Assembly (NCBI GenBank): GCA_934725985.1
Contig: CAKVCX010000001.1
Location: 365,910-429,909, forward strand
DNA: 64,000 nt
Direction of reading: 5' to 3'
Source: an uncultured Bacilli bacterium
Lineage (GTDB): Bacteria; Bacillota_I; Bacilli_A; RFN20; CAG-826
A program made the position numbers and the translations under genes. Position 1 is the first letter of the stretch; every line of letters starts with the position of its first letter. Below, in pieces: positions 7,458-56,569 of the stretch. The notes beneath the pieces were generated by a model that did no database searches, was not told the DNA's origin, and saw only the letters and a list, made by a program, of their open reading frames with translations.

Positions 7458-7544
7458 TTTAAATTATAGTAAATTTAAGTAAATTTCCTTAGGAAAATCT
7501 TAAACTTCATTCGGTTTATAATATTTTATGTCATAATAGACAAC
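7458..7544. promoter_or_regulatory. divergent AT-rich intergenic promoter region (TATAAT at 7517-7522)
   Basis: Lies between divergently transcribed patatin and 5'-nucleotidase genes; -10-like hexamer upstream of the 7545 ATG. Confidence 0.3.
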
Positions 7545-9140: not shown

Positions 9141-9166
9141 AGAACACGTGTATTTAAATTAGGCTC

Positions 9167-27878: not shown

Positions 27879-29489
27879 ATGTCAAATAAAAAGTTTTATA
27901 TTACTACCCCAATATATTATCCAAGTGCCTCCCCACATTTAGGACACGCTTATTGCACGACTATGTGCGACATCATAGCTAGAGGAAAAAGATTAAGGGG
28001 ATTTGACACTTATTTTTTAACCGGCACTGATGAACATGGCGAAAAAATAGAAAAAAACGCCAAAGCAAAAGGAGTGACCCCTCAACAATTCGTTGATGAA
28101 GTGGCAACTAAGTTTAAAGACCTATGGAAAGCCATGTATATATCTAACGATGACTTTATTAGGACAACCGATAAAAGACACGTCGAAACCGTTACAAAGA
28201 TTTTTTCTCGTTTGTTAGAACAAGACGATATCTATCTTTCATCTTATACCGGCTGGTATTGTGTCCATGAAGAAACCTACTGGACCGAAACCCAAGTCGG
28301 GGAAGAGCATTTATGCCCTGAATGCCATAGACCAGTAGAGAAAAAAGATGAACCGGCTTATTTTTATAGATGCCAAAAATATGTTGATTCTTTGCTAAAG
28401 TATTACGAAGAAAACCCAAAGTTCATAACCCCGGAAAATAGAAAAAACGAAATGATTAATACTTTCATTAAGCCAGGGCTACAGGATTTATGCGTATCTA
28501 GGACTTCCTTTACTTGGGGAATACCAGTTAAAGAAAATCCAAAACATGTCATTTATGTTTGGCTAGACGCCTTAACAAATTACATTACGGCTTTAGGGTA
28601 TCTACAAAAAGACGATTCAAAATTTAAAAAATATTGGCAAGATGAAAATTGCGAAGTAGTTCATGTCATCGGGGCCGATATAACTAGATTCCATACTATT
28701 TATTGGCCGATGTTCCTTGAATCATTGGGATTAAGAAAACCTAATAGGATTTTTGTCCACGGTTTGTTAATGATGAAAGATGGAAAAATGTCTAAATCAA
28801 AAGGCAATACCATTTCAGCTTATCCGTTGATTGAAAGATATGGAGTAGACGCAGTTAGGTATTACATGGCCCTAGAAATTCCTTTTGGCATGGATGGAGT
28901 ATTTACTCCTGAACAATTTGTCATGAGGATTAACCAAGATTTAGCCAACAATTTAGGCAATTTATTAAATAGAACCGTTTCAATGATTAATAAATATTTT
29001 AATGGCATTATTCCTTCCTTTAAATCTAACATAACCCCACTAGATAAAGAGTTAGAAGAAATGTTGAATACTACAATCGCTAAATATGAAACTCTTTCTG
29101 ATGATTTAAAGGTAACCGAAGCCTATACCGAAGTCATGAATCTAGTTAGCAGGGCCAATAAATATATAGAAGAAACAACGCCTTGGTCATTAGCAAAAGA
29201 TGAGAATAAAAAAGAACAACTAGAATCAGTTATGTCCCATCTTTCGTTCGTTTTATTTGTCGCCGGAATGTTACTAAAACCAATTCTAGTTACCAAATCA
29301 GATAAGATTTTCGACCAATTAGGGTTAAAAGAAGAAATGCGTGTATACGAAAACATACATAATCCTTCCTGTTTAAATAATCTAAAAGTTGAAAAAGGAG
29401 AGCAATTATTCCCACGTTTAGACAGCGAAAGCGAAATTCAGGCCATAACATCAATGATGAATGGGCCAAAAGAAAAGGCTGCTGCTTAA
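27879..29489 (+). CDS. metG: methionyl-tRNA synthetase (short form, no C-terminal tRNA-binding domain)
   Basis: HIGH-class motif PHLGHAY, four Cys zinc knuckle, KMSKS. Start at ATG 27879 (GAGG RBS); the ORF-track N-terminal extension crosses the rpmE terminator. Confidence 0.9.
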   Translation: MSNKKFYITTPIYYPSASPHLGHAYCTTMCDIIARGKRLRGFDTYFLTGTDEHGEKIEKNAKAKGVTPQQFVDEVATKFKDLWKAMYISNDDFIRTTDKRHVETVTKIFSRLLEQDDIYLSSYTGWYCVHEETYWTETQVGEEHLCPECHRPVEKKDEPAYFYRCQKYVDSLLKYYEENPKFITPENRKNEMINTFIKPGLQDLCVSRTSFTWGIPVKENPKHVIYVWLDALTNYITALGYLQKDDSKFKKYWQDENCEVVHVIGADITRFHTIYWPMFLESLGLRKPNRIFVHGLLMMKDGKMSKSKGNTISAYPLIERYGVDAVRYYMALEIPFGMDGVFTPEQFVMRINQDLANNLGNLLNRTVSMINKYFNGIIPSFKSNITPLDKELEEMLNTTIAKYETLSDDLKVTEAYTEVMNLVSRANKYIEETTPWSLAKDENKKEQLESVMSHLSFVLFVAGMLLKPILVTKSDKIFDQLGLKEEMRVYENIHNPSCLNNLKVEKGEQLFPRLDSESEIQAITSMMNGPKEKAAA

Positions 29490-30859
29490 TGAAACAAACA
29501 AGCCAAAAACAAATATTGACTGGAAAATGCTTTGATCTTTCCTTTGAGGGAAAGGGAGTATTTAAAGATGGCAATACCATTGTTTTTGTTGATGGTATGT
29601 TTCCTAACGAAGAAGGGGAAATTGAAATACTTTACAAAAGAAACGGAGCTTTATTTGGAAAAGTAAAAAAACTAACAAAAGTGTCACCGAATAGAATTCA
29701 GCCAAAATGTACAGTTTGTTCATCTTGTGGAGGGTGCTGTTTTCAACAATTAGAATATAAAGCCCAGTTAGAATACAAAACTAATAAAGTAAAAGAGCAA
29801 TTTAAAAAGATTGCCAAAATGGATGTTGATGTAAATCCATGTATCGGCATGGATGACCCTTATTTTTATAGAAACAAAATCCAAATGCCTTTTGGCAAAG
29901 ATAATAAAGGCAATCCTTACTGCGGATTCTATAAAGCCTCTACCCATGTAATTGTTCCAATCGATATTTGTTATATTGAAGACAAGAGATCAGAGCACAT
30001 CCTTTCATCTATAAAATCATTATTAAAATCTTTTAAAATAGAGCCATATAACGAAGATGAAAAATGGGGAATATTAAGACACGTCCTCATTAAAACCTCT
30101 TTCTATAAGAAAGAAATCATGGTTGTGTTGGTAACTGCCATTGATTCTTTTCCTAGTAGGAATAATTTTGTTAAAGCCTTAATAAAACTTTGCCCAGAAA
30201 TTACTACCGTGGTGCAAAACATTAATTCTAGATCTACTAATGTAATATTGGGAGAGAAAGAACATATCCTATATGGAAAAGGATATATTGAGGATTCTTT
30301 ATGTGGGGTTACTTTTCAAATCTCCTCCAAATCTTTTTACCAAACTAATCCCATAATGACAGAAAAGCTATATTCTTACGCGATAGAAAAGGCAAATTTA
30401 AGTAAAAATGAAGTGGCTTTCGACGCTTATTCAGGAATTGGTACAATCGGTTTGATAGCATCAAAGAGTGCAAAAGAAATAATTTCGGTTGAATTAGTTC
30501 CTCAAGCAGTTAAAGACGGAATTAAAAATGCGAAAAAAAATAATATAAATAATTTTAAGATGTATTGTGATGACGCTTCTTCTTTTATGGCTAAAATGGC
30601 CACGAATAATCAAGGCGTGGATGTATTATTTATGGATCCGCCAAGAAAAGGTTCAGATGAAAGGTTCCTAAAGGCCTTATTAAAATTAAAGCCCAAAAAA
30701 ATAGTCTATGTTTCTTGCGATCCGACCACTTTAGCAAGAGATATTTCTTATATCAACCAATCTTACAAAATAGAAGACATTCAGCCTTTTGATATGTTTC
30801 CTCAAACTTTTCATGTTGAGACTGTAGTGTTGCTTTGTCGCAAAAATGGCAAAAAATAG
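29489..30859 (+). CDS. rlmD: 23S rRNA (uracil-C5)-methyltransferase RlmD/RumA family
   Basis: TRAM domain, Fe-S Cys cluster (CTVCSSCGGCC), SAM-MTase motifs (FDAYSGIGTIGL, DPPRKG). TAATG overlap with metG. Confidence 0.85.
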   Translation: MKQTSQKQILTGKCFDLSFEGKGVFKDGNTIVFVDGMFPNEEGEIEILYKRNGALFGKVKKLTKVSPNRIQPKCTVCSSCGGCCFQQLEYKAQLEYKTNKVKEQFKKIAKMDVDVNPCIGMDDPYFYRNKIQMPFGKDNKGNPYCGFYKASTHVIVPIDICYIEDKRSEHILSSIKSLLKSFKIEPYNEDEKWGILRHVLIKTSFYKKEIMVVLVTAIDSFPSRNNFVKALIKLCPEITTVVQNINSRSTNVILGEKEHILYGKGYIEDSLCGVTFQISSKSFYQTNPIMTEKLYSYAIEKANLSKNEVAFDAYSGIGTIGLIASKSAKEIISVELVPQAVKDGIKNAKKNNINNFKMYCDDASSFMAKMATNNQGVDVLFMDPPRKGSDERFLKALLKLKPKKIVYVSCDPTTLARDISYINQSYKIEDIQPFDMFPQTFHVETVVLLCRKNGKK

Positions 30860-31230
30860 CCAAAAATCGATAAAATTTGATGGATTTCCTTCTTCCCAAA
30901 ATGAGGGAAATCCATTTTTTTGTCGAGAAAACCGCCCAAAACCCGGTAAAGCGGTAAAAATATGGCCTTTACTCGTATGGGGAAATAGGTCGACGCTAAA
31001 AATGCACGCCCATCCTACCTCATATCGGCACGAGAATAGGCGACTAGTACCTGTACACAATGGAAGGAACAGGTGAAAAAGCCCGTAATCATTGGCTTTT
31101 TCTGGGAATTCGTGATTTCTTCATTTTTTGCATTTTTCGGATACTGTGCAACCATACACCCAACCCGAAAGATCGTTTTTCGGCCTAAAAAGGGGCAAAA
31201 CAGGGGTATAGTTTGATTGGTATGAGAGTA
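30812..31230. repeat. rlmD-3'end repeat copy A (authentic rlmD end + ~370 bp downstream)
   Basis: catgttgagactgtagtgttgctttgtcgcaaaaatggcaaaaaatagccaaaaat… recurs at 32784 and 39812 with ~80-85% identity over ~400 bp. Confidence 0.7.
30882..30921 (+). terminator. rho-independent terminator of rlmD
   Basis: GGATTTCC…GGAAATCC stem followed by T7. Confidence 0.6.
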
Positions 31231-31315
31231 GGGTTCCCTTTGAACTCACAAAACTACTAAAAATAGTAAAAATGTGAGTTATGCACTATAATATTAGTAT
31301 TAAGGAGGAACATCC

Positions 31316-32560
31316 ATGATTTTTCAAAGGCATATTTCTTCAGCAGTAAGCAGAAGCATTAGCGAGTACCCAATAACCTTGATTACAGGCGCTCGTCAGG
31401 TTGGGAAAACAACGCTGGTTACCATTATTGAAAGAGAACGCGGTTATAAATATGTATCATTTGATGATACTGAGTTGCTTGCCTCTGCGAAGGCGAATCC
31501 AAAAAAGTTTATTAAGGAACATCCTGCACCAATCATTTTCGATGAAGTTCAAAAGGCGAAAGAACTATTCCCAGAAATTGAAGCGATTGTGAACGAAGTG
31601 AGGAGGGAAAGAGGCTCTCAGTCTGCAAACGGCATGTATATCTTGACGGGCTCGCAAAAATTCAATTTGATGAAAGAAATAAGCGAATCGATGTCGGGAA
31701 GGGTATCCATCATTGAAATGCCTCCCTTAAGCCAAGCTGAAATCAGAAATTGGCCTGAACCCGTTTTTTCAGTTGATAATATTAATATGCTTAGTGATTC
31801 GGAAAAACGTTCTTTGAGCGATGAGGATTTGTATCTATCTATAGTCCGTGGGTTTTATCCTGCTCGATGGGAGATTGAGGGAAAGCCAATTGAAAATTAT
31901 TTTTCAAATTACATGAAAACATATTTGGATCGAGATGTCTCTCAGCTAATCGCTTTGAAAGACAAGGTTAAGTTCGAGAATCTATTACGAGTGCTTGCTT
32001 CTTTAACAGGGCAGGAATTTATTCCGGACAACATTGCAAAAACTATAGGTGTCGATAAAAACACAGTCAACGCTTGGATAAATATTGCTATTGCCGGTGA
32101 TATCGTGACTTTGCTATCACCATATTACGAAACTTCAATTAATAAAAGAATTATAAAGCGACATAAGCTTTACTTTAATGACACCGGATTCGCATGCTAT
32201 CTTTTGGGAATCGACTCGCCAAAGGCTCTTCGCCTCTCTTCTTTTAGGGGCTCTTTAGTTGAAACCTATATTCACAATGAAATTAGAAAATCTTATTTAA
32301 ATAACGGCCTGGAAGATAAAAACATGTTTTTCTACCGAGACAATAATCAAAATGAAATAGATTTGATTTTGCTCAGGGATGGCAAGCTGGATTTCGTAGA
32401 ATGCAAATCCGGAAAAAAATTCACGCGCGAAAACGTCAAGGCGTTTTCACAATTGAAGAACACGTCATTCGAAATAGGTGGGCAGTGTATTGTTTGCACT
32501 GCGGAAGAGGCGTACCGAATTTCCTCAAACGTATATGCTTACCCTGTCCGTTGCATATAA
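31316..32560 (+). CDS. AAA-family ATPase with C-terminal DUF4143 domain
   Basis: Walker A GARQVGKTT, Walker B IIFDEVQ, C-terminal DUF4143-like region; GGAGG RBS; ~40% GC. Confidence 0.7.
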   Translation: MIFQRHISSAVSRSISEYPITLITGARQVGKTTLVTIIERERGYKYVSFDDTELLASAKANPKKFIKEHPAPIIFDEVQKAKELFPEIEAIVNEVRRERGSQSANGMYILTGSQKFNLMKEISESMSGRVSIIEMPPLSQAEIRNWPEPVFSVDNINMLSDSEKRSLSDEDLYLSIVRGFYPARWEIEGKPIENYFSNYMKTYLDRDVSQLIALKDKVKFENLLRVLASLTGQEFIPDNIAKTIGVDKNTVNAWINIAIAGDIVTLLSPYYETSINKRIIKRHKLYFNDTGFACYLLGIDSPKALRLSSFRGSLVETYIHNEIRKSYLNNGLEDKNMFFYRDNNQNEIDLILLRDGKLDFVECKSGKKFTRENVKAFSQLKNTSFEIGGQCIVCTAEEAYRISSNVYAYPVRCI

Positions 32561-32783
32561 TCTTTAGGAAGGTGATCGATAAGCTGAATCCGAATCTAAG
32601 ATCCACCGAAGAAAGCGACGGGAAAACAAGGAAATGCGAATTCTACAACCCATCTTGATCCGATGCTTATACAATCTTTGAAACCATTGCACAAATTAAC
32701 GGATTGAAACTGAATCTAGGCTTGGCCAAGCCTTTCGCACTGTGCCTCGTATTGGTGGATTAGTTCTTCGCGTCAAAACTATG

Positions 32784-33200
32784 CATGTTGAGACTGTGGT
32801 GTTGCTTTGTCGCAAAAATGGCAAAAAATAGCCAAAAATCGTGAAAATTTGATGGATTTCCTTCTTTCGAAAATGAGGGGAATCCTCTTTTTTTTGAGAA
32901 AACCGCCCAAAAACCAGGTAAAGCGGTAAAAATATGGCCTTTACTCGTATGGGGAAATAGGTCGACGCTCAAAATGAGCATCCATCCTATGTCGTATCGA
33001 CACGGGAATGGGTGACCATACCTGTACATAATGGATGGAACAGGTCAAAAAGCCCGTAATCATCCGCCTTTTCGGAAATTCATAGTTTCATCGTTTTTGA
33101 TGTTTTCGGAAAACAATGCAACCACACGCTCAACCCGGAAAGCCGATTTCCTGCCTAAAAAGGGGCAAACACGGAGGTGTAGTTTAACCAGAAGCATAAA
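32784..33200. repeat. rlmD-3'end repeat copy B
   Basis: Carries a copy of the last 16 codons of rlmD plus homologous downstream sequence; preceded by the conserved right-end motif cactgtgcctcgtattgg…ttcttcgcg. Confidence 0.7.
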
Positions 33201-33404
33201 ATATGGAATGACATTGAATACCGTGTGTAAGCAAAATAATCATAATGGCTATGCGGCTTTTTGCTTGTCGAGCCCAGCAAGCAATGGTTATCATGTCGAA
33301 TTACGCGAACTTATTGTCACTCCTATTTCCAGTGCCAATCGGTGCCAAAATAGTGCCATTTATGGCATCGGTGTGTTATATTATTGGCGAAAAGTGAAAT
33401 ATCT

Positions 33405-34796
33405 ATGTTGAAAGAACTGATTGCTGAGTGCACCGATTATGACTATAAAGTGTCTGTTGAAACCAAAAAACCAAGAAGCTGGCTAAAAACCGTGTCCGCT
33501 TTTGCTAACGGAGTGGGAGGCTCATTATTCTTTGGTATAAGCGATGAAGGAAATGTTATAGGGCTCAAAAATATAAAAGAAGATTCTGAAAGAATTTCTG
33601 AATTGATTAAGACGCGAGTTGAACCTAGGCCCATATTTGTTTTGATTCCTCATCAAATCGACTCAACGGCGATTTTAGAAATACAAATTCAACCTGGGAC
33701 ATCTACCCCATATTATTATCATTCTGACGGTGTGACCATTGCTTATATTCGTTCCGGCAATGAATCCATAGAAGCCCCCACATATATACTTAATGAATTG
33801 ATACTGAGAGGAACGGGACAGACTTTTGATGGCGTTCTCACAGGCGATTCTTTTTCGGATTATGCTTTTTCGTTTTTGAAATCCAAGTATCTCAAAAAGA
33901 CTCAAACGAGGCTTAATGACCGCGATTTTGTTTCATTTGGATTGATGAAGAACGACCATTTAACTAGAGCCGGTCTTTTGCTTGCTGACGAAAATGAATT
34001 GTTGCAAAGTAGGCTATTTTGCACTAGATGGAATGGCATTAATAAAGTAAACGAAAAAGTGGTCATAGACGATGATGAGATAAGTGGTTCTATCATAAAA
34101 CAGCTCGATGCGGCCTTCGATTTTTACAAAAGAAACACAAAAAGTGCATGGCATAAAGAAGGAGAGGGTACCGTCAATGAACCAGAGTATGACGATATCG
34201 CCATTACGGAAGCCCTTGTTAATGCGATAATCCATCGTGATTATAATATCGTCGGGGCCGAGACGTGTTTAAATATCTATGACGATCGCATTGAAGTCAC
34301 ATCGCCGGGCATGATGTTTTCCGGCAAAAAAATTCCTGAAGTGATTGATTATCCAATGGAATCCATTAGGCGCAATCCCGTTATTGCTGACGTATTCAAT
34401 AGAATGAATTTGATGAACAGAAGAGGATCTGGTCTGTCTAACATCACAAATAGAACAAACGCCCTATTTAGCGATGGCAGAAATCATGTGACCTTCGCTT
34501 CGGAAGACGGTTTTTTTACTGTAAGAATCGAAAACTCCAAATATAAAGGCAACGCGGCAGCGGCAAGTGATAACGGAGAAGCGGTTGCCGATATGAACCG
34601 ATTATTGACGCTAAACGAATATGCTGTTTATTCGAAGTTGAAAACTAACGCGAAGCTTTCTTATGACGAATTATCTAAAGAAGTGGAAATCTCTAGAAGA
34701 ACTGTAGCAAGAGCCATAGCGGCTTTAGTGGAAAAGGGCTATATCAAAAGAGCTGGTTCCGCTAATAAGGGCGGATATTGGATTATTTTAAAATAG
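33405..34796 (+). CDS. AlbA_2 (divergent AAA/Schlafen-like) + HATPase_c-like + wHTH putative DNA-binding regulator
   Basis: N-terminal AlbA_2-type domain (VSAFANGVGGSLFFGI), central ATP-binding-like region (ITEALVNAIIHRDY), C-terminal winged HTH (LSYDELSKEVEISRRTVARAIAALVEKGYI). Confidence 0.55.
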   Translation: MLKELIAECTDYDYKVSVETKKPRSWLKTVSAFANGVGGSLFFGISDEGNVIGLKNIKEDSERISELIKTRVEPRPIFVLIPHQIDSTAILEIQIQPGTSTPYYYHSDGVTIAYIRSGNESIEAPTYILNELILRGTGQTFDGVLTGDSFSDYAFSFLKSKYLKKTQTRLNDRDFVSFGLMKNDHLTRAGLLLADENELLQSRLFCTRWNGINKVNEKVVIDDDEISGSIIKQLDAAFDFYKRNTKSAWHKEGEGTVNEPEYDDIAITEALVNAIIHRDYNIVGAETCLNIYDDRIEVTSPGMMFSGKKIPEVIDYPMESIRRNPVIADVFNRMNLMNRRGSGLSNITNRTNALFSDGRNHVTFASEDGFFTVRIENSKYKGNAAAASDNGEAVADMNRLLTLNEYAVYSKLKTNAKLSYDELSKEVEISRRTVARAIAALVEKGYIKRAGSANKGGYWIILK

Positions 34797-34845
34797 TTTT
34801 TACGGCATATCGCTTTTCTTATATTGGCTAAGCAATCTGCTTTTG

Positions 34846-35000
34846 GGCGGTTGCACAGTTGTGTTTAGACCGTGGTCGATTTATTCCCTCCACACATTAC
34901 CTCGTATTGGCAGGCCTGTTCTTTGCGCCCAATCTGTTCGTGTTGAGACGGTGGTGCAACTGGTTCGGAAATAATGCAATAAATACGGGGCTTTTGGCAA
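34846..35000. repeat. degenerate partial repeat copy (right-end motif + diverged rlmD 3' fragment)
   Basis: ggttgcacag…cctcgtattggcaggcctgttctttgcgcccaatctgttcgtgttgagacggtggtgcaactggttcg matches the motif preceding copies B and C and the first ~30 nt of the repeat. Confidence 0.5.
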
Positions 35001-35370
35001 ATTTGAGAAGAATAGAAAAATGCTAAAATTGCATAATTCTCTGAAATCTAGAAACTCTAAAAACAGCTACTAGACTCGGGAGACATATCGAATAGTGTCT
35101 GAAATACGGCACTTTTTCAATTTCGACCTAAAAGTACCTAAAAACATCGAAAAATGGCCAAAATTCCTGTAGACATGCTGAAAATTTGAAGTATCAAAGC
35201 CAATTATAAAAATAAGAAAAACGAGGCGAGGTGGCCTTGATACTACTAATGCATACAACATTAATAGGGCTAGAATCGTATCAATATGGCTTACCATCGA
35301 ATGCAATGCACTTGTCATTCCGAATATCACATACGCTGATGAAAAATCATTTGGGTATAACCTTGACGGT

Positions 35371-35640
35371 TTGGAGGATTGCGAAATACTCGCTTTTTCT
35401 GTAAAAGGCTCCATAAATGATTATCAACAGCTGACTTTGCTGAAAAAGACACTCTATATGGTCATAAACAGGTTAGCAAAGCTGCATACGATTGTGGTCT
35501 ATAGCGTTTCAATCGACAATGGAAAGGTGTTGGATCTCTTTCAATTTGCTATAGCTAAGGGAATCACAATTTTGATTCCTGACAATCTTCTCAAACTAAG
35601 AAATCTTGCATTAGGAGGCAACAAAAATGGGAAGATATAA
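35371..35640 (+). CDS. hypothetical protein; possible degenerate serine-recombinase/resolvase catalytic-domain remnant
   Basis: …HTIVVYSVSIDNGKVLDLFQFAIAKGITILIP… weakly resembles the C-terminal half of a resolvase catalytic domain. The similarity continues upstream in the same frame without an ATG, so it is probably a remnant. Confidence 0.2.
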   Translation: MEDCEILAFSVKGSINDYQQLTLLKKTLYMVINRLAKLHTIVVYSVSIDNGKVLDLFQFAIAKGITILIPDNLLKLRNLALGGNKNGKI

Positions 35641-35781
35641 GAAAACAGGCCTTTTCTTTGGTACTTCTGGATCCCACCAGTTGTCGTTTGAAAATTATGA
35701 ATATGAGGATAAAGTTAAGGAGCTCGAGAAAAAGACGGATATAACCGAAAAGAATTCGACAAAAACGAATTAAGTTATGAT

Positions 35782-36106
35782 TTGTCAAAATCAAAATTAG
35801 AAAATTATCTTCTTAATATAAATCATTCTGTTGGTGGGTCTAAGGCCAAATTTTTCATAAATGCACTGGCCTATTCGTACGATAAACCAAAACAATTTTT
35901 TGATAATGTTTCGGATGCTATTAATGGGGAAAAAACCAGTCAAAGATACAACAACAAAATATGGTAGAGTTCTCGAATTTCATGAGAGAATAAAAACAAT
36001 GTTTGGAGAATATAAGGAAGTTAATATCATAGTATCAATTCAAAAAGACCATGGAGCAAAAAAATATAGAATAATAACTATTTACCCAGGAAAGAAAGGA
36101 GAGTAA
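35782..36106 (+). pseudogene. DUF6883-like protein, frameshifted at an A-run (~35926-35932)
   Basis: Two overlapping frames together give a DUF6883-like sequence (…HSVGGSKAKFFINALAYS… / …KYGRVLEFHERIKTMFGEYKEVNIIVSIQKDHGAKKYRIITIYP). The frame switch is at gggaaaaaaacc. Confidence 0.4.
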
Positions 36107-36108
36107 TT

Positions 36109-36291
36109 ATGAAATTATATGATATAGTCCAATTAAAAGAACAATTTAATAATTATCCTAAAGGAACGACCGGCGTTATCGTTGAGATTTTCGAAAACGC
36201 CGACGCCTATCTTGAGATTGTAGATGACACCGGAAATGCTATAGATGTCATATACGATGTGCCATTATCAATTTTGGAAAAGAAAAAATAA
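36109..36291 (+). CDS. DUF4926 family small protein (putative partner of DUF6883)
   Basis: 60 aa MKLYDIVQLKEQFNNYPKGTTGVIVEIFENADAYLEIVDDTGNAIDVIYDVPLSIL matches the DUF4926 pattern; GGAG RBS. Confidence 0.55.
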   Translation: MKLYDIVQLKEQFNNYPKGTTGVIVEIFENADAYLEIVDDTGNAIDVIYDVPLSILEKKK

Positions 36292-37183
36292 TAGTAGTAC
36301 TCTAACATAGGATTCGTTGAGAAAATTGGCTCGATGTGTCTTATTATTGTGATTGCAAAGGAAAATAAAAAAGATGACTTTCACATAAATGATGAAGTAA
36401 AATGCCTTTCCATCAGTGATATAGTGTTGATTTTATTGCGATATTGACGACGGAAAGGCGTTTTAGTATGGGTTTTGCTCCGTCAAATGCTATATGATGA
36501 CATTAGAAAACCCTGCCGCAAGACTCTTGTTTCGGGGAGCTGACAGTCCCACAGATTCAAAAAATCGGTGAATAACTGGCGCACAGTTTCGTTTTAGAAT
36601 TTGGAAGAGAGATTGACGTCGTTTACGGCAATCTCACTAATGCCTAGTGCCTTCGCGGCCTCTTTGACTCCCCACAAACTCGGATTCCGCCTTTTTGACA
36701 TCTTCCCAGCTCCCGTAGTACTTTGAAGTGCTATCAATAAATAGACATAGACAGGACGTCCATAGTCACCGTATGGGGGTCAGGTCCGTTCACGTGGACA
36801 TGAGCCTGAACACGGAAGGAGAGCGCATACTTGGTGGAATACAGAACGATTGATCTGTTCCTTTACCCGCTTCCATCCGAGGCGTCCCAGCAAAGGATCA
36901 CGGATGAAATCAACAGGATGAAGGAACGTGGATGGTCTTACGTTGAATCAAAGGTCGTTGATGACTGCAACATCATGCTGATATTCAAAAGATGAATACC
37001 AGCCAAGAAGGATAAGTTCCTCCTTTTTCAATAAACGCTCCACGAAATACAAACAAAACATATTTGCAGGAGCGAACGCCGCAAAATTGATGGCATGGTT
37101 TTCTATTCATCGATTCTTTCTAGAGAATGTGCCTAGAGCATTGATAATTAATGATACATCGGTTACACTAATAAAGGAAATAG

Positions 37184-37801
37184 ATGATACGAATGAATCA
37201 AAATTACAATACGCTGATAAAGATAATTGAGTCTGGGGACGGAAGCATATCCAGGAAAGACGCCATGGCAAATGGTATTCCGCCGGCGACTTTCGCAAGG
37301 TACGTCAGCTCCAATCATCTGGTCAAAATCAGGCGCGGCGTATACGCGAAGGATGGCGCCGTGGACGACCTCTTCCAACTTCAGAGAAGGTATCCGGGGA
37401 TAGTGTATTCTGGTCTGACCGCGCTTTATCTTCTTGGCTTGACCGACAGGATTCCGGATTCGATTGAGTTCACGATCCCGAAAGGATGCCGCGTGAGGAA
37501 GAATAGCATCGGGGTCAACGCCATCTGCCACATCGAGAACAATGCCGAACTCTTTCATTTGGGAAACGTCAACACCCAAACCATGTTCGGAAATGAAGTC
37601 ATTTGTTACTCAAGAGAGAAAATGATAGTTGAGATGATACGGAAGAGGGACGATTACGATTCGGAGCTGTTCCTGAAGGCGGTGAGAACGTTCCTGAAGG
37701 GGAAGGTCAGGGACATGGGTTTCCTCTTCAGATACGCGAGAATGAGGAAAATGGAAGAGAAGGTATATCAAATTCTAGAGGCAATGGATTATGAGGATTA
37801 A
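37184..37801 (+). CDS. AbiEi-family (type IV TA antitoxin-like) DNA-binding protein
   Basis: N-terminal AbiEi_4-type motif (LIKIIESGDGSISRKDAMANGIPPATFARYVSSNHLVKIRRGVYA); ~50% GC. Confidence 0.6.
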   Translation: MIRMNQNYNTLIKIIESGDGSISRKDAMANGIPPATFARYVSSNHLVKIRRGVYAKDGAVDDLFQLQRRYPGIVYSGLTALYLLGLTDRIPDSIEFTIPKGCRVRKNSIGVNAICHIENNAELFHLGNVNTQTMFGNEVICYSREKMIVEMIRKRDDYDSELFLKAVRTFLKGKVRDMGFLFRYARMRKMEEKVYQILEAMDYED

Positions 37802-37967
37802 CAGGGATTCTCTTTCCGCTTCTCCTTATGTAGATATGTTCCTCTTCCAAGGATGAATTATTTATATTGGAGTTAACGTTGCAAATATTTTAAAAATATA
37901 AAAAATTGCCACGTTAACTATTAAATAACAATGCTATGGTATATAATAACAGCACAAGAGGCGAATT

Positions 37968-39197
37968 ATGAAACTCTATAAACGGGAAAAGTATCTGTCA
38001 AAGATGCGCGCGTTCTTCCACGATGACGATCTCATCAAAGTGATAACCGGGATACGCAGATGTGGGAAATCCAGCCTCATGCAAACCATAGCGGAGGAGC
38101 TTAAAAAAGGTGGCGTTGCAGAAAACAACATTATTTATATTGATCTCGACAAACGTGGGTATAAAAACATCCGAAGCGCCGATCAACTAGATTCGTTAAT
38201 CGAATCCGCCGCGCAAGCGAAGGGGATGAAATACCTTTTCATAGACGAGATTCAGAACGTCCAAGGCTTCGAGGAGGTAATCAACGGGTTCAGGTCCGAA
38301 GGCGGCTATTCGATTTTCATAACGGGCTCCAATTCCTATTTGCTCAGTGGAGAGCTCGTGACGAAGCTGACCGGTAGATATCTTGAATTCGAGATGTTCC
38401 CGCTGACATTCGACGAATACGAGGGCATGAAGAGGTTCTATGAGCGCGATATCGATGCCAACGCCGAAATAGAGCTGAATAACTATATTTTGGAAGGCGG
38501 ATTCCCGCGAGCCATTCAAATTGACAGCCTTTTGGACAAGCGTACCTACGTGAAGGGGATCATCAATGAGATCTTCGAAAAAGACATCAAGCGAAGGGTG
38601 AAAATCAAAGACGTTCAATCCTTTGATTTGGTCCGGAATTACATCATCAACAATTTCGGCGCGACGACGAGCATCAACAGCCTGCACGAAGCGCTTCTCA
38701 AAAACGGCATGGCCATCAGCCGCGCGACGGTGACCCGGTATATAAAAACGTTGGTTAATGCGAAGATTCTGTACGAATGCAAAAGGTTCGACATGAAATC
38801 AAAAAAAACACTCTCGGGAGAGCAAAAGTATTACGTCGCCGACCTGAGCTTTTACTACGCGATGAACACAGACAACCGAATTAATTACGGGCCGACGCTG
38901 GAGAACGTCGTGTATTTGTACGCAAGAAGCCTCGATTACGCGGTAAGCGTTGGACGCATCGGAAAGCTGGAATGCGATTTCATCCTCAGAGACGGCAACA
39001 TGGATTATTCCTATGTGCAGGTGGCTTATAAAATACTGCAAAGCAAAGACACGGAAGACAGGGAATATAGGCCGTTGGAGGGTATACGGGACAATTACAG
39101 GAAATACGTCATGACAACGGACTATATGCTGCAGAAGAGAAACGGCATCATCCATGTCAACCTGATGGATTTCATAGGCGGCGGCAAACGCTTTTAA
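37968..39197 (+). CDS. AAA-family ATPase with C-terminal DUF4143 domain
   Basis: Walker A GIRRCGKSS, Walker B LFIDEIQ, DUF4143-like C-terminus; ~52% GC; GAGG RBS. Confidence 0.7.
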   Translation: MKLYKREKYLSKMRAFFHDDDLIKVITGIRRCGKSSLMQTIAEELKKGGVAENNIIYIDLDKRGYKNIRSADQLDSLIESAAQAKGMKYLFIDEIQNVQGFEEVINGFRSEGGYSIFITGSNSYLLSGELVTKLTGRYLEFEMFPLTFDEYEGMKRFYERDIDANAEIELNNYILEGGFPRAIQIDSLLDKRTYVKGIINEIFEKDIKRRVKIKDVQSFDLVRNYIINNFGATTSINSLHEALLKNGMAISRATVTRYIKTLVNAKILYECKRFDMKSKKTLSGEQKYYVADLSFYYAMNTDNRINYGPTLENVVYLYARSLDYAVSVGRIGKLECDFILRDGNMDYSYVQVAYKILQSKDTEDREYRPLEGIRDNYRKYVMTTDYMLQKRNGIIHVNLMDFIGGGKRF

Positions 39198-39294
39198 GCA
39201 AAGTACCAACTCATTAAAATCGTATCCAATGCAGACGTCGCCGTTTAAAAGCGGAATTTGTAGAAATTACTGATGCAATGATTACATTGGACGT

Positions 39295-39681
39295 ATGTTC
39301 GCTAAAGATAATGCGGGAAAAATAGAACTAGTTAGTTTGGTAAATACCAGGACATATTTAAAAATCACTCATGCGTATTCTTTGACTTCAACATTCAACT
39401 ATAACGCTGTCGCTAATGGACTGCTTACTTCTCCTCCAGGCGACTTCTATAACTGGATTTCAATGGCTGGAAAGATGCAATACGACGTTGCCAAGTTCAA
39501 CGCTGATGCCGCAAAGTATGGCTTATACGATTATTCTACTTTCGAGCCATATGGAATTTCCTACGAAACGTTCGTGGCTTTCAACGGGCAATATTTGAAG
39601 ATACCTGTGGAAAAAGGAATATTCTCCTTTGAATATATCATCAATCTATTCAACACGTACAAAGGCTGGCTTGAGGGGTAG
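39295..39681 (+). CDS. hypothetical protein (possibly 3' fragment); last ~40 bp duplicated at 41166
   Basis: 128 aa ORF with a non-ATG start in the track; its C-terminal coding sequence and ~80 bp downstream recur at 41166-41290. Confidence 0.3.
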   Translation: MFAKDNAGKIELVSLVNTRTYLKITHAYSLTSTFNYNAVANGLLTSPPGDFYNWISMAGKMQYDVAKFNADAAKYGLYDYSTFEPYGISYETFVAFNGQYLKIPVEKGIFSFEYIINLFNTYKGWLEG

Positions 39682-39811
39682 CATCTATTTCCTGATACTA
39701 CCTTGGTGTACAGTTTTAGCCAGTTGCACAGCCATGTTTTGAATGTGGTAGATATGTTCCTTTCACACTGTGCCTCGTATCGGTAGACCTGTTCTTTGCG
39801 TCCATGTTACG

Positions 39812-40215
39812 CATGTTGAGACTGTAGTGTGCTTAGTCGCAAAAACGGCGAAAAATAGCCAAAAATAGTGAAAATCTGATGGATTTACTTCTCAAAAATG
39901 AGGGAAATCCTCTTTTTTGTTGAGAAAACCGCCCAAAACCTGGTAAAGCGTTAAAAATAGGGCCTTTACTCGTATGGGGAAATAGGTCAACGCTAAAAAT
40001 GAGCACCCAACCTACCTCGTATCGACGTGGGAACGGGTGGTCCATACCTGTACACGTTGGAAGGAACAGGCGAAAAAGCCCGTAATCATCGGTATTTTCA
40101 AAAAATCGCGATTTCTCGTTTTTTTTACATTTTCTGAGCACGTTGCAGTCACACGCCCAACCTGGAAAACTGATTTTAGCCCTAAAAAAAGGGTAAAAGC
40201 GGAGACATAACTTGA
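39812..40215. repeat. rlmD-3'end repeat copy C
   Basis: Same architecture as A and B; preceded by cacactgtgcctcgtatcggtagacctgttctttgcg. Confidence 0.7.
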
Positions 40216-40347
40216 TAGAAAATTAGAAAGAAAGCGGCAAGGTTGGTGATCTTGATGTTTTCAAACATAAATACATATATTGTAATGACACTATATTGAT
40301 ACTATACGAATTTCTATGTATATTTTATTTGGGAGGAGGTGATTTAC

Positions 40348-40620
40348 ATGGCCACAACAAATTTGAATATTCGCACCGATAAAGCAATCAAAGAACAGGC
40401 CGAAGCAATCTTCAACAAACTAGGGTTGAATATGACGACGGCCGTTAATATGTTTCTAAGAACAACCATCCGCGAAAATGGCATCCCTTTCGATTTACGA
40501 TTGGATGTGCCAAACGAAGTAACCGCTTCAGCAATCGAGGAAGGAAGAAGGCTTGTAGCAGATCCTTCTGCCCCGCGCTATTCCAGCATGGATGAATTGA
40601 AGACGGCGCTGAAAGAATGA
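40348..40620 (+). CDS. dinJ: type II antitoxin, RelB/DinJ family
   Basis: MATTNLNIRTDKAIKEQAEAIFNKLGLNMTTAVNMFL ribbon-helix-helix DinJ signature; GGAGGAGG RBS 8 nt upstream of ATG 40348. Confidence 0.8.
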   Translation: MATTNLNIRTDKAIKEQAEAIFNKLGLNMTTAVNMFLRTTIRENGIPFDLRLDVPNEVTASAIEEGRRLVADPSAPRYSSMDELKTALKE

Positions 40621-40892
40621 AGTATGATGTACAGTTTACCAATCAGTTTAAGAAAGATTTGAAGCTTGCGAAAAAACAAAATAAGAATCTGGATAAATTG
40701 TTTGAAGTTATCGATATTCTTGCAAACGGCTGTTTATTGGATGTAAGATACAAAGATCATGGTCTTACAGGCAATTATAAAGGAACGCGTGAGTGTCACA
40801 TTGAACCAGACTGGTTGCTGATTTATGAAATTCGGAATGATGTGTTGGTCTTAATGCTTTATCGACTTGGCACGCACTCCGAGCTGTTTTAA
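40617..40892 (+). CDS. yafQ: type II toxin, YafQ/RelE family mRNA interferase
   Basis: 91 aa; KDLKLAKKQNKNL…HGLTGNYKGTRECHIEPDWLLIYEI YafQ pattern; ATGA start/stop overlap with dinJ. Confidence 0.8.
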   Translation: MKYDVQFTNQFKKDLKLAKKQNKNLDKLFEVIDILANGCLLDVRYKDHGLTGNYKGTRECHIEPDWLLIYEIRNDVLVLMLYRLGTHSELF

Positions 40893-41479
40893 AGATGAAT
40901 CATAAAGCGAAACCATCTGCTAGAAATGAAAGGAACCCTAAATCCTAAGCATTAGGAGAGTGCTTTTTCTATTTCAACCCAAAAGAAGAGTTACAAGGCG
41001 TTTGTGCAATTCACAAGCCGCCACCCCCCTCTCGCGATTACGAATGGCAAATCAAAACACACAAAATATATAGCCACAATTAAGATAGGCTAATGCCTAA
41101 ATGCCTTTGCAAGGAACATGATGGGAACATGAGGAACACGATTAAAAGTGCGGTCTTCGATATATCATCAATCTATTCAACACGTACAAAGGCTGGCTTG
41201 AGGGGTAGCATCTATTCCCTGGTACTACCTTGGTGTACAGTTTTTTCTAATTGCGCAGTCACGTTTTGGATAGATGGATGATTGAATTTTGAATAATGGA
41301 GAATAGCCACGTAAACTATATCCAGTAATTAGAACACGAAAACGGAAAATATATAACGAAAGTTAAGATAGAATGATGTCTAAATGTTTTTATAAAAGAT
41401 ACAACAAGGAAAAAAGATATAAGAAAAGTAGACCATGGATCATTCAACAAGTAACAATGAAAACCTTAGTAATAAACGT

Positions 41480-43588
41480 TTAATCGAAATAAGAAGAGGG
41501 AGTTGTTAATTTATTATTTTTATTTGTAAGAGTAAATAGAACACCTTTTGTAGAAGAACCACCATAGTAATTCTTATTCTCTCCAACGGATAATTTCCAT
41601 TCGCCAGTAGGATCGACATAGAAAAGATAACCCATATTCTCGTCTTGTTCTTCCGTCAATGTCCAACCTAGCGAAACTAGAAGTTCCTTATATTTATTAA
41701 TATAGGAATCCCTTTGTTCGTTCGTTTCAAATTCATTAGTCCTAAAAGCAACGTATTTAGAATAACTAGAATCCATAGTTCCTGAAGCATCTTTCCACCT
41801 TGCCCAAGCAACAGCATAATCTTTATAACCAGTGTTGGTCGGGTAAAGATATGGAACAACATTATCTACTCCCCATTCTTTTAGGGAAGCAAGCAGGGTT
41901 TCTGGGTATTCAGTTGGCTCAGTTTGGTCTACGATAGAAGACCAATCATAATTCAAAGCAGTAGTTCCGATTTTTGAAAACTCGCCAGAAAATTCAATCG
42001 TATCGTTTAAAGAGGAGGATGTTAGTTGGCCTTTCATGCTTGCAAGATGCCCGCCACTTAAAGTAAGGCTTACCTCTCCATTTACGGAATAATAATAAGC
42101 ATATCTAGGCAAACTAAAGCAATACGAAAGAAGTGAACCCGTATGGTCTCCACGTGATTTATAAACCCCATTATTTGCCGGGCCAAATACTTCCACGGCG
42201 AAATCGAATGTCGGATAGCGATTAATAGAGTCCCAAGAAGCAACATAATTCTTGGTTTTCGTTAAAGTGCCTGTAGTATCATCGTAAGTATAAGTAAAAT
42301 AACCAGTTCCGTCTTTATGAGCCCCATCATGAGCCAGGATTTTTCCATTTGAATCCACAATTTTTTCTTCGATGGTATCATCAGTATATACCATTGTATA
42401 AGTGGTCTTTCCATCATCCCCATCAATAGAATATGTAGCAGTATAATTTTTAGAAGCGGCAATTTCTTCCCTTGCCGTTTCTAAATCATCATGATAAGTT
42501 TCATGAACATACGGCTTAATATGGTCAATTTTTGCAGTACCAATTTCAGATATTGTGCCTTCCACTACTTGACCACCCTTATTTGCAACACCATCTTTTC
42601 CAAACGGGTCAGTAACAAAATAAATACCTAAAGAATCCCCATTAACTGTTATTGCAAATTCATCAGGGGTTATATCTTGAAGAACTAAAGAACAAGCTAA
42701 ATATGTTGTAGCCCAAAGGCTATTCCCAACATAGGAATAAGTTTTTCCTCCATCAAAGCTTTCAAAATCGGTAGCAGTAACCAAAGGTTCCATATCGGTG
42801 TTTTCTTCATATTTAAATAAATTTTCATAATAAGAATTCACCCATTTATATTCATCACCATCGTCATTAAATAAAGTAGCTTTTCCAATTTGGTTATCTT
42901 TATTTAAATATTCGGTAGCTAAACGTACACCGTTACGAACATATTTTCTTTCATATGTAACTTTTTGTGTTTCATGGTCTTTGACAGTAATTTGATAAGC
43001 ATCCGTATTATGATAGCTATCCATGTCATCGACTTCTTCATAAATGGTTGTGATATCAGATTGCTCGAAAAGGGTTGGATTAAGCTCTCTATCATAGTCA
43101 TATAGAGTTTGGGTCAATTCAACTTTCATTCCACCCGTTAGTTTATCAAACACCTCGCTAGACAAAGCGGTTCCATGGGCAATATTAAATGTTTTTGAAA
43201 CAATTACATCTTCTTCGCCTTCTAAATGAGCGGAAATAGTTGCTTCACCCTCGCTTACGGCGGTTAAAAGGGCCTCATTACTTATCCCTTCCATTTTAGA
43301 AGCACGGATAACGTTTGGGTCCGAGGATTGAAAAACAACATTTCCCGTAACGCCTTCTTTAAGAATGGCGTAAATGGAACGGCTTTGATTTAAATGTAAG
43401 TCACCATTCATTGCCAAAGTAAATTTGGCATTTTCTGGGGTAACCTCTTTAGTAGAACTAGATGAGGTTACTTCTTCTGAGGTTTTTTCTGTCGTGGAAT
43501 CTGCCGATTCGCTTGCATTTCCTCCGCTAGAAGCGCAAGAGCCAAGCAACAACGCGGCTGTTAGTATTAATATTTTCCTTTGTTTCAT
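41480..43588 (-). CDS. large surface lipoprotein (Ig-like/BIG domain-containing)
   Basis: Lipobox LLLGSCASS, S/T-rich linker, then ~650 aa Y/G/T/D-rich beta-rich extracellular region. Confidence 0.5.
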   Translation of the reverse strand: MKQRKILILTAALLLGSCASSGGNASESADSTTEKTSEEVTSSSSTKEVTPENAKFTLAMNGDLHLNQSRSIYAILKEGVTGNVVFQSSDPNVIRASKMEGISNEALLTAVSEGEATISAHLEGEEDVIVSKTFNIAHGTALSSEVFDKLTGGMKVELTQTLYDYDRELNPTLFEQSDITTIYEEVDDMDSYHNTDAYQITVKDHETQKVTYERKYVRNGVRLATEYLNKDNQIGKATLFNDDGDEYKWVNSYYENLFKYEENTDMEPLVTATDFESFDGGKTYSYVGNSLWATTYLACSLVLQDITPDEFAITVNGDSLGIYFVTDPFGKDGVANKGGQVVEGTISEIGTAKIDHIKPYVHETYHDDLETAREEIAASKNYTATYSIDGDDGKTTYTMVYTDDTIEEKIVDSNGKILAHDGAHKDGTGYFTYTYDDTTGTLTKTKNYVASWDSINRYPTFDFAVEVFGPANNGVYKSRGDHTGSLLSYCFSLPRYAYYYSVNGEVSLTLSGGHLASMKGQLTSSSLNDTIEFSGEFSKIGTTALNYDWSSIVDQTEPTEYPETLLASLKEWGVDNVVPYLYPTNTGYKDYAVAWARWKDASGTMDSSYSKYVAFRTNEFETNEQRDSYINKYKELLVSLGWTLTEEQDENMGYLFYVDPTGEWKLSVGENKNYYGGSSTKGVLFTLTNKNNKLTTPSSYFD

Positions 43589-53861: not shown

Positions 53862-53862
53862 G

Positions 53863-55596: not shown

Positions 55597-56569
55597 TATT
55601 CCCCCACATTAATGATACAAACTTGATTTCCTGATCCTTCTCCCAATCCATAATGACACATCTCTTTCCGTTATGCTTTTTGGGATCATTATTTTTACAG
55701 CCCGGACAAATATCAAACTTAGGCTCTTCTAATTCACCAAACAAGCTCAGCTGAACTGCTTTTTTTACTTCGTTATGGCATGAAAAAGGGACTACGTATT
55801 TTAATCCGTCCATTTGCCAAATATTCCAACTAATAATTGTTGCTACATTAATCAGCAATTCTTTATCCGGCAATTTATCAAATCTATCAAGATAATAATC
55901 GATAAAATCAAAAAATATGTTCTCGCGTGCTATTAAAAGATTATCCCCCTGGAATTCGTAACCATAAATTGACTTTAAGGCCTTCATTGCATATTCAAGC
56001 CATTCGTCATCACTAGAAGCGTTCTCCTTTATAACCCTAAATTTCCTATCTAAAAGACCAACTCTATTTTTAATTTCTATTATTTGGCCGTTTACTGCAT
56101 CATATCTTGATACTAAATATGGAGCCTCCCCACAGCAAACCTCTAAGCGGATATCGTTTACATAATCAATCCAAGTTTTACCACAATCAAAAATTACTTT
56201 TTCAGTTGGCGTCCAAGTATTATCTAAATTCTCTATATTAAACTTTCCTTTATTGCCAAACCATGCATCATCGACTAAATTATTTTGCTTATTCACAAGC
56301 CAAGATGGAGTAAAAACCTCAGCGTTATCTTTGCTTCTTTTTACTTGTTCAGCCTTGCTCTTTTCTATTCTTGGCCTGATAGCACGTATTCCGCTAAGCA
56401 CGTGCATTGGTTTGATTTCATTAGTAGGCGAATAACCTTTGCCTTTATTTTTGTAATGATCTGTAGCCCAGATAATGTTTTTGTTCGTCGTTCTATCTAA
56501 TAGAAGAGCGGAAAGGATTTCAGGGAAAGAAGAATACACTTCATTTAAATTTATTTCACTTTCAGCCAT
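55574..56569 (-). CDS. methyltransferase-like N-terminal fragment-type protein with C-terminal zinc ribbon (first gene of operon)
   Basis: AEVFTPSWLV (motif X-like) and a possible degenerate motif I (LEVCCGEAPY) but no NPPY; C-terminal CHNEV…CPGCKNND CxxC-type ribbon; 23-nt overlap with the MTase gene. Confidence 0.4.
   Translation of the reverse strand: MAESEINLNEVYSSFPEILSALLLDRTTNKNIIWATDHYKNKGKGYSPTNEIKPMHVLSGIRAIRPRIEKSKAEQVKRSKDNAEVFTPSWLVNKQNNLVDDAWFGNKGKFNIENLDNTWTPTEKVIFDCGKTWIDYVNDIRLEVCCGEAPYLVSRYDAVNGQIIEIKNRVGLLDRKFRVIKENASSDDEWLEYAMKALKSIYGYEFQGDNLLIARENIFFDFIDYYLDRFDKLPDKELLINVATIISWNIWQMDGLKYVVPFSCHNEVKKAVQLSLFGELEEPKFDICPGCKNNDPKKHNGKRCVIMDWEKDQEIKFVSLMWGNSGYDDEK

Follow-up and report, generated by a model that had tools for sequence, protein, structure and literature searches.

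The rumA gene, also called rlmD, is a common site of insertion for integrative elements, both conjugative (ICEs) and mobilizable (IMEs), that use serine integrases (Coluzzi et al., PMC5357655). For the vanG and ICE-r elements, the insertion point is a GA dinucleotide within the codon that stands 11th from the rumA end, in hosts whose RumA proteins are 36–74% identical (PMC4120198). At their right end these elements carry a serine recombinase gene that has no stop codon of its own, their conserved left ends are fused to rumA, and insertions occur in tandem (Srinivasan et al., PMC4120198). Elements that keep their att-flanked ends and have lost the genes for integration and transfer are defined as cis-mobilizable elements (CIMEs) (PMC5704250). 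Here we describe a 64-kb stretch of DNA (the window) from an uncultured gut Bacilli bacterium, contig CAKVCX010000001.1. Positions 30812–41271 of the window, at the 3′ end of rlmD, most probably represent a tandem accretion of four elements that target rlmD by way of large serine recombinases (LSRs) and have been reduced to non-autonomous, CIME-like cassettes.

A further precedent is provided by the staphylococcal cassette chromosome elements (SCC, SCCmec) at rlmH (orfX) and by the Enterococcus cassette chromosome, in which LSRs insert elements at the 3′ end of a gene for an rRNA methyltransferase and this gene stays intact. Composite SCC islands are tandem arrangements in which repeats holding the 3′ end of the gene lie between the units, and they include pseudo-elements without a recombinase as well as accessory and defence cargo.

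The array in the window resembles the serine-recombinase ICEs and IMEs of rumA/rlmD (vanG, ICE-r, ICESp2905, IME_SpnAP200_rumA) in its target, the same His-Val-Glu-Thr (HVET) codons, about a dozen codons from the stop, in divergent hosts, and in tandem insertion. It also resembles them in having left ends that are conserved despite different cargo and joined in frame to the 5′ part of rlmD, and in an LSR open reading frame (ORF) that can cross the att site. Unlike those elements, the units in the window are 1.5–5 kb long and hold one operon each, without recombinase or transfer genes, their cargo is of the defence or toxin–antitoxin (TA) kind rather than antibiotic resistance, and their hosts are uncultured small-genome gut Bacilli near 'Candidatus Enteromonas'. 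The left-end module of these units (EL) provides a short RlmD-like C-terminus and a terminator; in the published elements, by contrast, 115 foreign codons are joined to rumA, or the gene is described as disrupted. With CIMEs and tandem accretion (the ICESt1/ICESt3 family, streptococcal IMEs) the array shares retained ends, lost genes and a single target gene; classical CIMEs, however, use a tyrosine integrase and short direct repeats, whereas the window units appear to be LSR-based and have very long ends. Tandem, recombinase-less elements, direct repeats with the target 3′ end and a target gene kept intact are shared with SCC, but the target is rlmD rather than rlmH, and SCC repeats are ~15–20 bp as against 420 bp here. 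Finally, compact, mostly co-oriented defence and TA cassettes that lack a recombinase and vary in order between genomes recall sedentary chromosomal integrons and clusters of attC sites lacking integron integrases (CALINs). Unlike integrons, the array has no IntI, attI or attC hairpins; it has double-stranded LSR-type sites in a housekeeping gene and a standard 420-bp module in each cassette. Targeted full-text literature searches found no description of this cassette family. Elements with serine recombinases that target rumA, accretion, CIMEs and SCC-like islands are already known; new are the streamlined, recombinase-less, single-operon cassettes, in which the target gene is restored by a long left module of standard form, their defence cargo, their spread among uncultured gut Bacilli and their clear turnover within species.

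Array anatomy

Self-comparison of 29–43 kb returned direct repeats at 30804–31214, 32776–33185 (85% identical to the first) and 39812–40198 (81%), and no further copy of this ~420-bp repeat within the 64-kb window. Delimited as units, the repeats are ~420 bp long, start at 30812, 32784 and 39812, and are 81–85% identical to each other. Each opens with the 11-mer CATGTTGAGAC, the His-Val-Glu-Thr codons of RlmD, and comprises the final 48 nt of rlmD, then a hairpin with a T-run and then ~330 nt more. Identity between the window rlmD and the rlmD of other hosts ends at 30811. The degenerate motif CAYGTNGARAC occurs five times in the window against 0.19 expected, with three of the five at repeat starts.

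An earlier reading of this DNA from its letters alone (the sequence-only reading) had described three diverged repeats at these positions, made up of the rlmD end, its terminator and downstream sequence, and self-comparison bears out both points. A shared motif that it saw in front of copies B and C and of a further copy at 34.9 kb is real as well, measuring ~70–115 nt (families D4 and D6 in the self-comparison), as is the jump in GC content, from 31–35% in the host flank to 36–50% in the island. The cargo, which it had placed ~250 bp after each repeat, begins ~80–200 nt past the repeat end. The copy at 34.9 kb, which it took for a degenerate fourth copy of the same repeat, is by alignment a second (beta) left-end family and not a decayed EL, since over 237 nt the unit at window core 34939 shares 75% identity with a left end located after an LSR gene in another locus, L057. 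The defence or TA-like character of the cargo was upheld by matches in Pfam and PADLOC, which identify two PDC-S01 ATPases, a Schlafen/AlbA_2 protein, AbiEi and RelB/YafQ. The features of the array are as follows, with the three ~420-bp units forming the alpha family of EL and Y1 denoting the right-end module.

29489–30859 (+): rlmD, rumA-family 23S rRNA U5-methyltransferase (Pfam tRNA_U5-meth_tr, E=7e-24); the element supplies the last 16 codons, from 30812
30812–30822 (+): recombination core CATGTTGAGAC at junction J0, between rlmD and cassette 1
30812–31235 (+): EL alpha copy A, with replacement RlmD C-terminus, stop codon, terminator and ~330 nt of conserved non-coding sequence
30881–30922 (+): hairpin and T-run, the rlmD terminator carried by EL (sequence, terminator scan)
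31316–32560 (+): cargo 1, AAA_14/DUF4143 ATPase (PADLOC PDC-S01)
32731–32783 (+): right-end module Y1 of cassette 1, 5′-truncated (family D4, alignment)
32784–33205 (+): EL alpha copy B, with core at 32784–32794
33031–34796 (+): cargo 2, a doubtful 126-aa ORF starting within EL plus the Schlafen/AlbA_2 gene
33384–34796 (+): Schlafen/AlbA_2-HATPase_c_4-wHTH protein of cargo 2
34841–34938 (+): Y1-like right end of cassette 2 (families D4, D6), matching Y1 of L023, L025, L030 and L039
34939–35175 (+): left end of cassette 3, beta family (75% over 237 nt to the L057 left end), core mutated to CGTGTTGAGAC (CGTG)
35861–36291 (+): two small ORFs of cassette 3 (81 aa; 60 aa with a weak DUF4926 match)
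36779–36991 (+): stretch with a remnant of the C-terminal end of an LSR, pseudogene (tblastn, nucleotide identity, translations)
37184–37801 (+): cargo 3a, AbiEi-family protein (Pfam AbiEi_4; PADLOC AbiEi, E=1e-49)
37968–39197 (+): cargo 3b, AAA_14/DUF4143 ATPase (PDC-S01)
39295–39681 (+): C-terminal gene fragment of cluster F33 (546 aa in L030), 89.5% nucleotide identity to L030
39682–39811 (+): Y1 right end of cassette 3, full length, with two GTAGAYNTGTTC motifs
39812–40225 (+): EL alpha copy C, core at 39812–39822, with a 1-nt deletion in the arm right after the core
40339–40892 (+): cargo 4, RelB antitoxin (40339–40620) and YafQ toxin (40617–40892) (Pfam)
41160–41271 (+): truncated array end, the 3′ end of an L030-like 546-aa gene and the first half of Y1, 91% identical to 39633–39744

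By eye, the 546-aa gene of L030 looks like Hint. The two small ORFs of cassette 3 overlap and have a counterpart in none of the other loci examined; they may form a small TA-like pair.

Insertion at rlmD across gut genomes

With a conserved 25-nt stretch of the repeat as query, we recovered 28 public metagenome stretches, which together with two genome loci gave 40 EL copies. All 40 open at CATGTNGAGAC (CATGT(T/G/C)GAGAC), encoding HVET. On the 5′ side of the core lies either rlmD, which is barely alignable across hosts, or, at internal copies, a right-end module. The EL copies are 73–88% identical to those of the window at the DNA level, while the adjoining RlmD proteins are only 40–83% identical. 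In the nearest species genomes, metagenome-assembled genomes (MAGs) labelled Bacillales, Mollicutes and 'Candidatus Enteromonas', RlmD is 81–83% identical to that of the window, and EL is absent from the three closest relatives, L005–L007 (RlmD 81–83%). Vertical inheritance of EL as native DNA downstream of rlmD was rejected, because EL identity does not follow RlmD identity and the closest relatives are without EL.

The same break is found within species. The rlmD genes of L026, L033, L035 and L039 are 99.75–99.9% identical across the 799 nt up to the core, and those of the L022/L024 pair are 100% identical across this length; in same-species pairs the EL that follows is only 83–95% identical and the cargo beyond it is unrelated. 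First differences in these pairs fall at position 12 of the core region, and in six of them the breakpoint lies between −1 and +12 of the core. In a converse pair, nearly the same EL (95% over 200 nt) adjoins rlmD in one locus, L004, and occupies an internal junction of the other, L046. Cassettes are also shared between hosts. From 116 nt 5′ of the core to 32675, a segment that takes in EL copy A and cargo 1, the window is 89.5% identical over 2 kb to L022, the RlmD of which is 43% identical, and the module of AbiEi and ATPase recurs at 84–86% nucleotide identity in L025, L030, L032, L042 and L045. Arrays of two or three EL copies are present in L023, L025, L026, L030, L039 and L045.

The breakpoints within species and the sharing of cassettes across hosts thus point to site-specific insertion with ongoing turnover and not to duplication of host sequence. 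Serial site-specific integration at the rlmD 3′ end, as the sequence-only reading proposed, is therefore supported by a break in similarity within the 11-bp core, both among distant hosts and within species. Its view of the repeats as att-derived duplications of host DNA has to be revised, since they are conserved left ends borne by the elements and replacing the host rlmD 3′ end, with an att core of ~11 bp. What it named as speaking against integration, a fixed arrangement combined with a structured RNA, is not what we found; cassette content is polymorphic, and no RNA structure emerged (see below). A phage or plasmid origin of EL was dropped, as phage collections, plasmid collections and viral contigs gave no EL matches.

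Several cassettes outside the window merit separate mention. A cassette in L025 that seemed 'empty', with EL and Y1 only, proved to be a deletion derivative still holding a cargo-gene remnant. L030 (oriented, 6231–11165) has two identical 2467-bp tandem cassettes (EL, AAA_14/DUF4143 and Y1), which are either a duplication by the recombination system or an assembly repeat. A recurrent cassette in L024, L026, L034 and L045 consists of two genes, one for a 128-aa TIR protein resembling ThsB and one for a 326-aa caspase-like peptidase C14 protein, and looks like a compact defence pair travelling with EL.

The left-end module

EL prolongs the rlmD frame by 13–15 codons; in the window it adds 15 codons ahead of the stop, and counted from the end, the core's Glu codon is number 13. 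Among aligned EL copies, column variability is codon-patterned in nt 1–48 (0.10, 0.08, 0.17); after nt 48 the aligned copies show no codon pattern (0.14, 0.16, 0.15) and their indels are single-base. Minus-strand ORFs of 90–150 aa in some EL copies (clusters F5, F20 and F21) and a 43-codon plus-strand ORF from ATGGAAGG were accordingly rejected, given the lack of periodicity past nt 48 and the 1-nt indels.

The repeat has no Rfam match at the gathering score or at E≤1, and tRNA and tmRNA scans of it were negative. For 29 aligned EL copies (450 columns), RNAalifold reached only −27 kcal/mol, the covariation term being −1.1, and without the terminator the consensus fold, assessed against column shuffles, comes to about −10 kcal/mol on either strand. 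The sole clearly compensatory change lies in the terminator hairpin, where one pair goes from CG to AU in 3 of the 29 copies. A structured RNA beyond the terminator thus found no support in Rfam, in the tRNA/tmRNA scan, in RNAalifold or in folding of both strands, and, taken with the periodicity results, EL past the RlmD C-terminus is non-coding DNA without a convincing RNA fold.

This non-coding part holds blocks that are almost invariant among the 29 aligned copies. It also has short direct repeats, three of them GGAATAGGT-like and two CGGTAAA, and it has CTCGTAT in common with the right end. A sigma-70 promoter at the EL 3′ end was considered and rejected, as the scan was not above chance and a TATAGT box there is without a properly spaced −35. 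Our preferred guess is that the non-coding part combines sites for accessory factors with insulation or expression of the cargo and with termination and insulation of rlmD; it may also have a role as oriT or promoter.

Serine recombinases of related arrays

When the proteins of all loci were clustered, one recurrent family stood out by its Resolvase, Recombinase and Zn_ribbon_recom domains, the architecture of an LSR. In L043, a full-length LSR of 592 aa ends 190 nt 5′ of an EL; the L025 copy is frameshifted, runs across the core and stops within EL. Homologues lie in compact IMEs with a MobL relaxase directly 3′ of rlmD, in the same L31-MetRS-RlmD synteny as in the window. In L049, L31, MetRS and RlmD are followed by a core, restriction-modification cargo, MobL, two small genes and the LSR; past the LSR come further genes and then a conserved arm, a core and an AAA_14/DUF4143 cassette. 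L053–L057 have the L049 backbone with different cargo. In all, LSRs are carried in L043, L025 and L049–L057. Proteins of 73–77 aa and ~152 aa encoded 5′ of the LSR are candidate directionality factors. The loci with LSR and MobL hold extra core copies, each with a conserved arm on its 5′ side.

The sequence-only reading had named a tyrosine integrase as the candidate enzyme; the related arrays indicate a large serine recombinase instead, which fits the published elements (PMC4120198, PMC5357655). Its statement that no recombinase gene remains in the window holds in so far as Pfam scans of 38 window ORFs, out of 40 that reach at least 150 aa, detected neither a tyrosine nor a serine recombinase domain, and fails for a short LSR tail remnant within 36779–36991. 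This stretch matches LSR tails by tblastn (L030, 75% over 24 aa; L028, E=6e-5) and is 81% identical in nucleotides to L030. About 25 LSR residues are clearly recognisable in it, and the remainder matches the sequence after the remnant in other arrays.

Many LSR homologues of ~50% identity (proteins P0023–P0118) are 582–1001 aa long and have unrelated Pfam domains fused C-terminally, a variety in length and fusion that is expected if a stopless ORF reads across att into the host gene entered. The Schlafen cargo of the LSR-bearing IMEs is not close to the window Schlafen. Just 5′ of Schlafen/AlbA_2 genes in LSR-MobL elements there are tandem ~11-bp repeats (TGAAC plus 6 nt; L053 1–150, L054 1090–1190, L056 760–860) that look like operator or iteron arrays.

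Site architecture

Internal junctions have the core's GAGA at the centre of an inverted repeat, TTTGCG-N38-CGCAAA. A TGTTC-containing motif starts 21 nt 5′ of the core in rlmD and 26 nt 5′ of it in right-end modules. In serine integrases, the motifs of the zinc-ribbon domain lie 5 bp further inward in attB than in attP (Rutherford et al., PMC3783163). From these spacings, the TGTTC offset would match the 5-bp shift between attB and attP, and the inverted repeat would fit the architecture of an LSR site. The Glu codon of the core carries a GA dinucleotide, at which crossover would presumably occur. The idea that the right side holds a native B′ arm whose motif is shifted by 5 bp was set aside, as L005 fits it and other genomes do not.

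An 11-mer of the core class, CACGTCGAAAC, which also encodes HVET, lies inside the methionyl-tRNA synthetase gene metG just upstream of rlmD, at 28179–28189, and near 8671 in L005–L007. As no element is inserted there, the match looks coincidental, and it shows that the core alone is not sufficient to define a target.

Arms located after LSR genes hold a palindrome GTCGATATATCGAC, perfect or near-perfect, 47–60 nt 5′ of the core, at these sites:

L057, ~5365–5378: GTCGATATATCGAC palindrome
L043 (oriented), ~2108–2120: GTCGATATATCGAC palindrome
L053, ~14383–14395: GTCGATATATCGAC palindrome

Left ends and the Y1 right end also contain related motifs, AGACATATC and GATATGTTCC. Motifs of the GTCGATATATCGAC type may be binding sites for an accessory protein.

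Mechanism and alternatives

Accretion of LSR-type elements, the account that we consider most probable, takes in the observed anatomy of the array, the sharp breakpoint at the 11-bp core, the horizontal spread of cassettes, their polymorphism within species and their association with LSR and MobL genes. In such a mechanism, LSRs would insert elements into the conserved HVET codons near the 3′ end of rlmD/rumA. Cassettes are built on a common plan, with the core CAYGTNGAGAC, an EL of ~420 bp, one defence or TA operon and a Y1 of ~130 bp that abuts the next core, and rlmD stays intact because EL supplies a substitute C-terminus, stop codon and terminator. The attP of an incoming element would recombine with the rlmD-proximal junction and push older cassettes downstream, this direction being our suggestion; the newest cassette would then adjoin rlmD, and damage at the second and third internal junctions fits older cassettes lying farther from it. 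The autonomous relatives, with LSR and MobL, are IMEs, whereas the window cassettes would have lost both genes and keep only a stub of the LSR tail. To move again, they would depend on an LSR acting in trans or on the array being transferred as a whole, and mobilisation in trans is a presumption on our part.

Regarding the definition of CIMEs, there are cores at 30812, 32784, 34939 (mutated) and 39812, each with left and right modules, and no recombinase or transfer genes. The LSR-tail remnant and the fragments of the L030-like 546-aa gene indicate deletions. Many short cassettes across many genomes nevertheless keep both ends intact, which suggests more than random decay; selection for mobilisable mini-elements could be the alternative to it.

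A number of points weigh against this account. The data are drawn entirely from metagenome assemblies. The 64-kb window encodes neither an LSR nor a relaxase, and no complete element with an intact LSR, alpha EL and Y1 was found; the LSR-bearing IMEs that we recovered have the same core with other left-end and right-arm sequences, and the LSR lineage that accompanies the cassettes is represented only by fragments of 103–280 aa in a 5.8-billion-protein database. Past 41271 there is neither a core nor a remnant of the rlmD 3′ end, the distal att site (attR) being gone, and junctions 2 and 3 are damaged by the CGTG core and the 1-nt deletion, respectively; part of the array may thus be fossil or decaying. 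The conserved ends, with a left one of ~420 bp and a right one of ~130 bp, far exceed the ~50 bp that an LSR site needs, and this excess is unexplained. In the standard model, moreover, serine integrases do not target attL, so that repeated insertion beside rlmD needs relaxed specificity or an unproven property of the site.

A more far-reaching possibility, which we hold only tentatively and rate well below accretion itself, is that the array functions as an integron equivalent run by serine recombinases, in which LSRs of co-resident IMEs capture cassettes at rlmD and excise and reshuffle them in trans. The repeats in EL (GGAATAGGT, CGGTAAA, CTCGTAT) would in that case bind a factor that licenses otherwise unusable junctions.

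Among rival explanations, homologous recombination without any site-specific recombinase has the most to be said for it, although we regard it as unlikely. EL (~420 bp) and Y1 together with the preceding gene remnant (~250 bp) would act as homology arms through which DNA of relatives replaces or adds cargo, and the LSRs nearby would belong to unrelated elements at the same hotspot. Conserved ends much longer than any serine-recombinase site would follow naturally, as would mosaic cassettes that share modules in varied combinations, the absence of a recombinase from the window and that of an intact LSR linked to alpha EL and Y1. Yet crossovers between homologous arms should be scattered, and in six same-species pairs the breakpoints fall at −1 to +12 after 799 nt at 99.75–100% identity; EL copies that are 73–88% identical are poor substrates, unrelated families of left ends and right arms use the same 11-bp core, and the site is the published LSR target in rumA. 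Long non-coding ends could also be taken to mean that the repeat is a functional RNA gene or a cis-regulatory leader required by each defence operon. It is non-coding, conserved in blocks and upstream of every cargo operon, with a single-sequence fold somewhat more stable than shuffles (z=−3.2). The weak consensus fold, the compensatory change that is clear only in the terminator and the lack of any Rfam match at E≤1 make this reading very improbable, as does the fact that the unit always starts exactly at the core within the rlmD coding sequence.

The co-oriented, mostly single-operon defence and TA cassettes without a recombinase are as in sedentary chromosomal integrons, and an integron-type or other tyrosine-recombinase system (CALIN-like), with attC-like repeats, would explain them. 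However, the repeats are direct, ~420 bp long and start inside a gene, related arrays carry serine and not tyrosine recombinases, and the window ORFs scanned have no Phage_integrase domain. Inverted repeats were absent at a setting of at least 40 nt and no attC-like hairpin was apparent, short attC-type repeats not having been specifically searched; taken together, we give such a system hardly any credence. An assembly artefact, in which reads of different strains are chained through the shared repeat, is just as implausible. It draws on the origin of the window in a MAG scaffold and on the many related contigs that break just after rlmD or the LSR gene, but the three copies differ by 15–19% and are easily resolved, and multi-copy arrays recur in independent samples. 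Moreover, of eight contigs with an identical RlmD, a window-like place stands for six, with mostly the same neighbouring genes.

If accretion of LSR-type cassettes is correct, rlmD is a dedicated docking site for standardised defence and TA cassettes in abundant uncultured Bacilli of the human gut, with turnover of cassettes within species and passage between hosts that share only ~40% RlmD identity, and the paradigm of SCC and rumA ICEs extends to the traffic of defence genes in the gut microbiome. The 11-bp core and the conserved left end provide a sequence handle with which to harvest candidate defence systems from metagenomes. As serine-integrase tools, the recombinases and their att sites may be of practical interest, with a target that is conserved over very divergent hosts, and the long non-coding end raises the question of what a serine-recombinase element needs beyond a 50-bp site.

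Neighbouring genes

Adjoining the array, 41480–43588 (−) encodes a 702-aa protein with a weak DUF7028 match only and no homologue in the other loci; it is either host flank or the last cargo. Farther on, 50875–56565 (−) holds a system of three genes, with products of 331 aa, 577 aa (an Eco57I-like methyltransferase) and 996 aa. It lies 10 kb from the array, without EL or core, and in DNA it shares 79–81% identity with what EL cassettes carry at rlmD in L028, L033, L027, L010 and L048. The same defence module is thus cassette-borne elsewhere and resident outside the array here.

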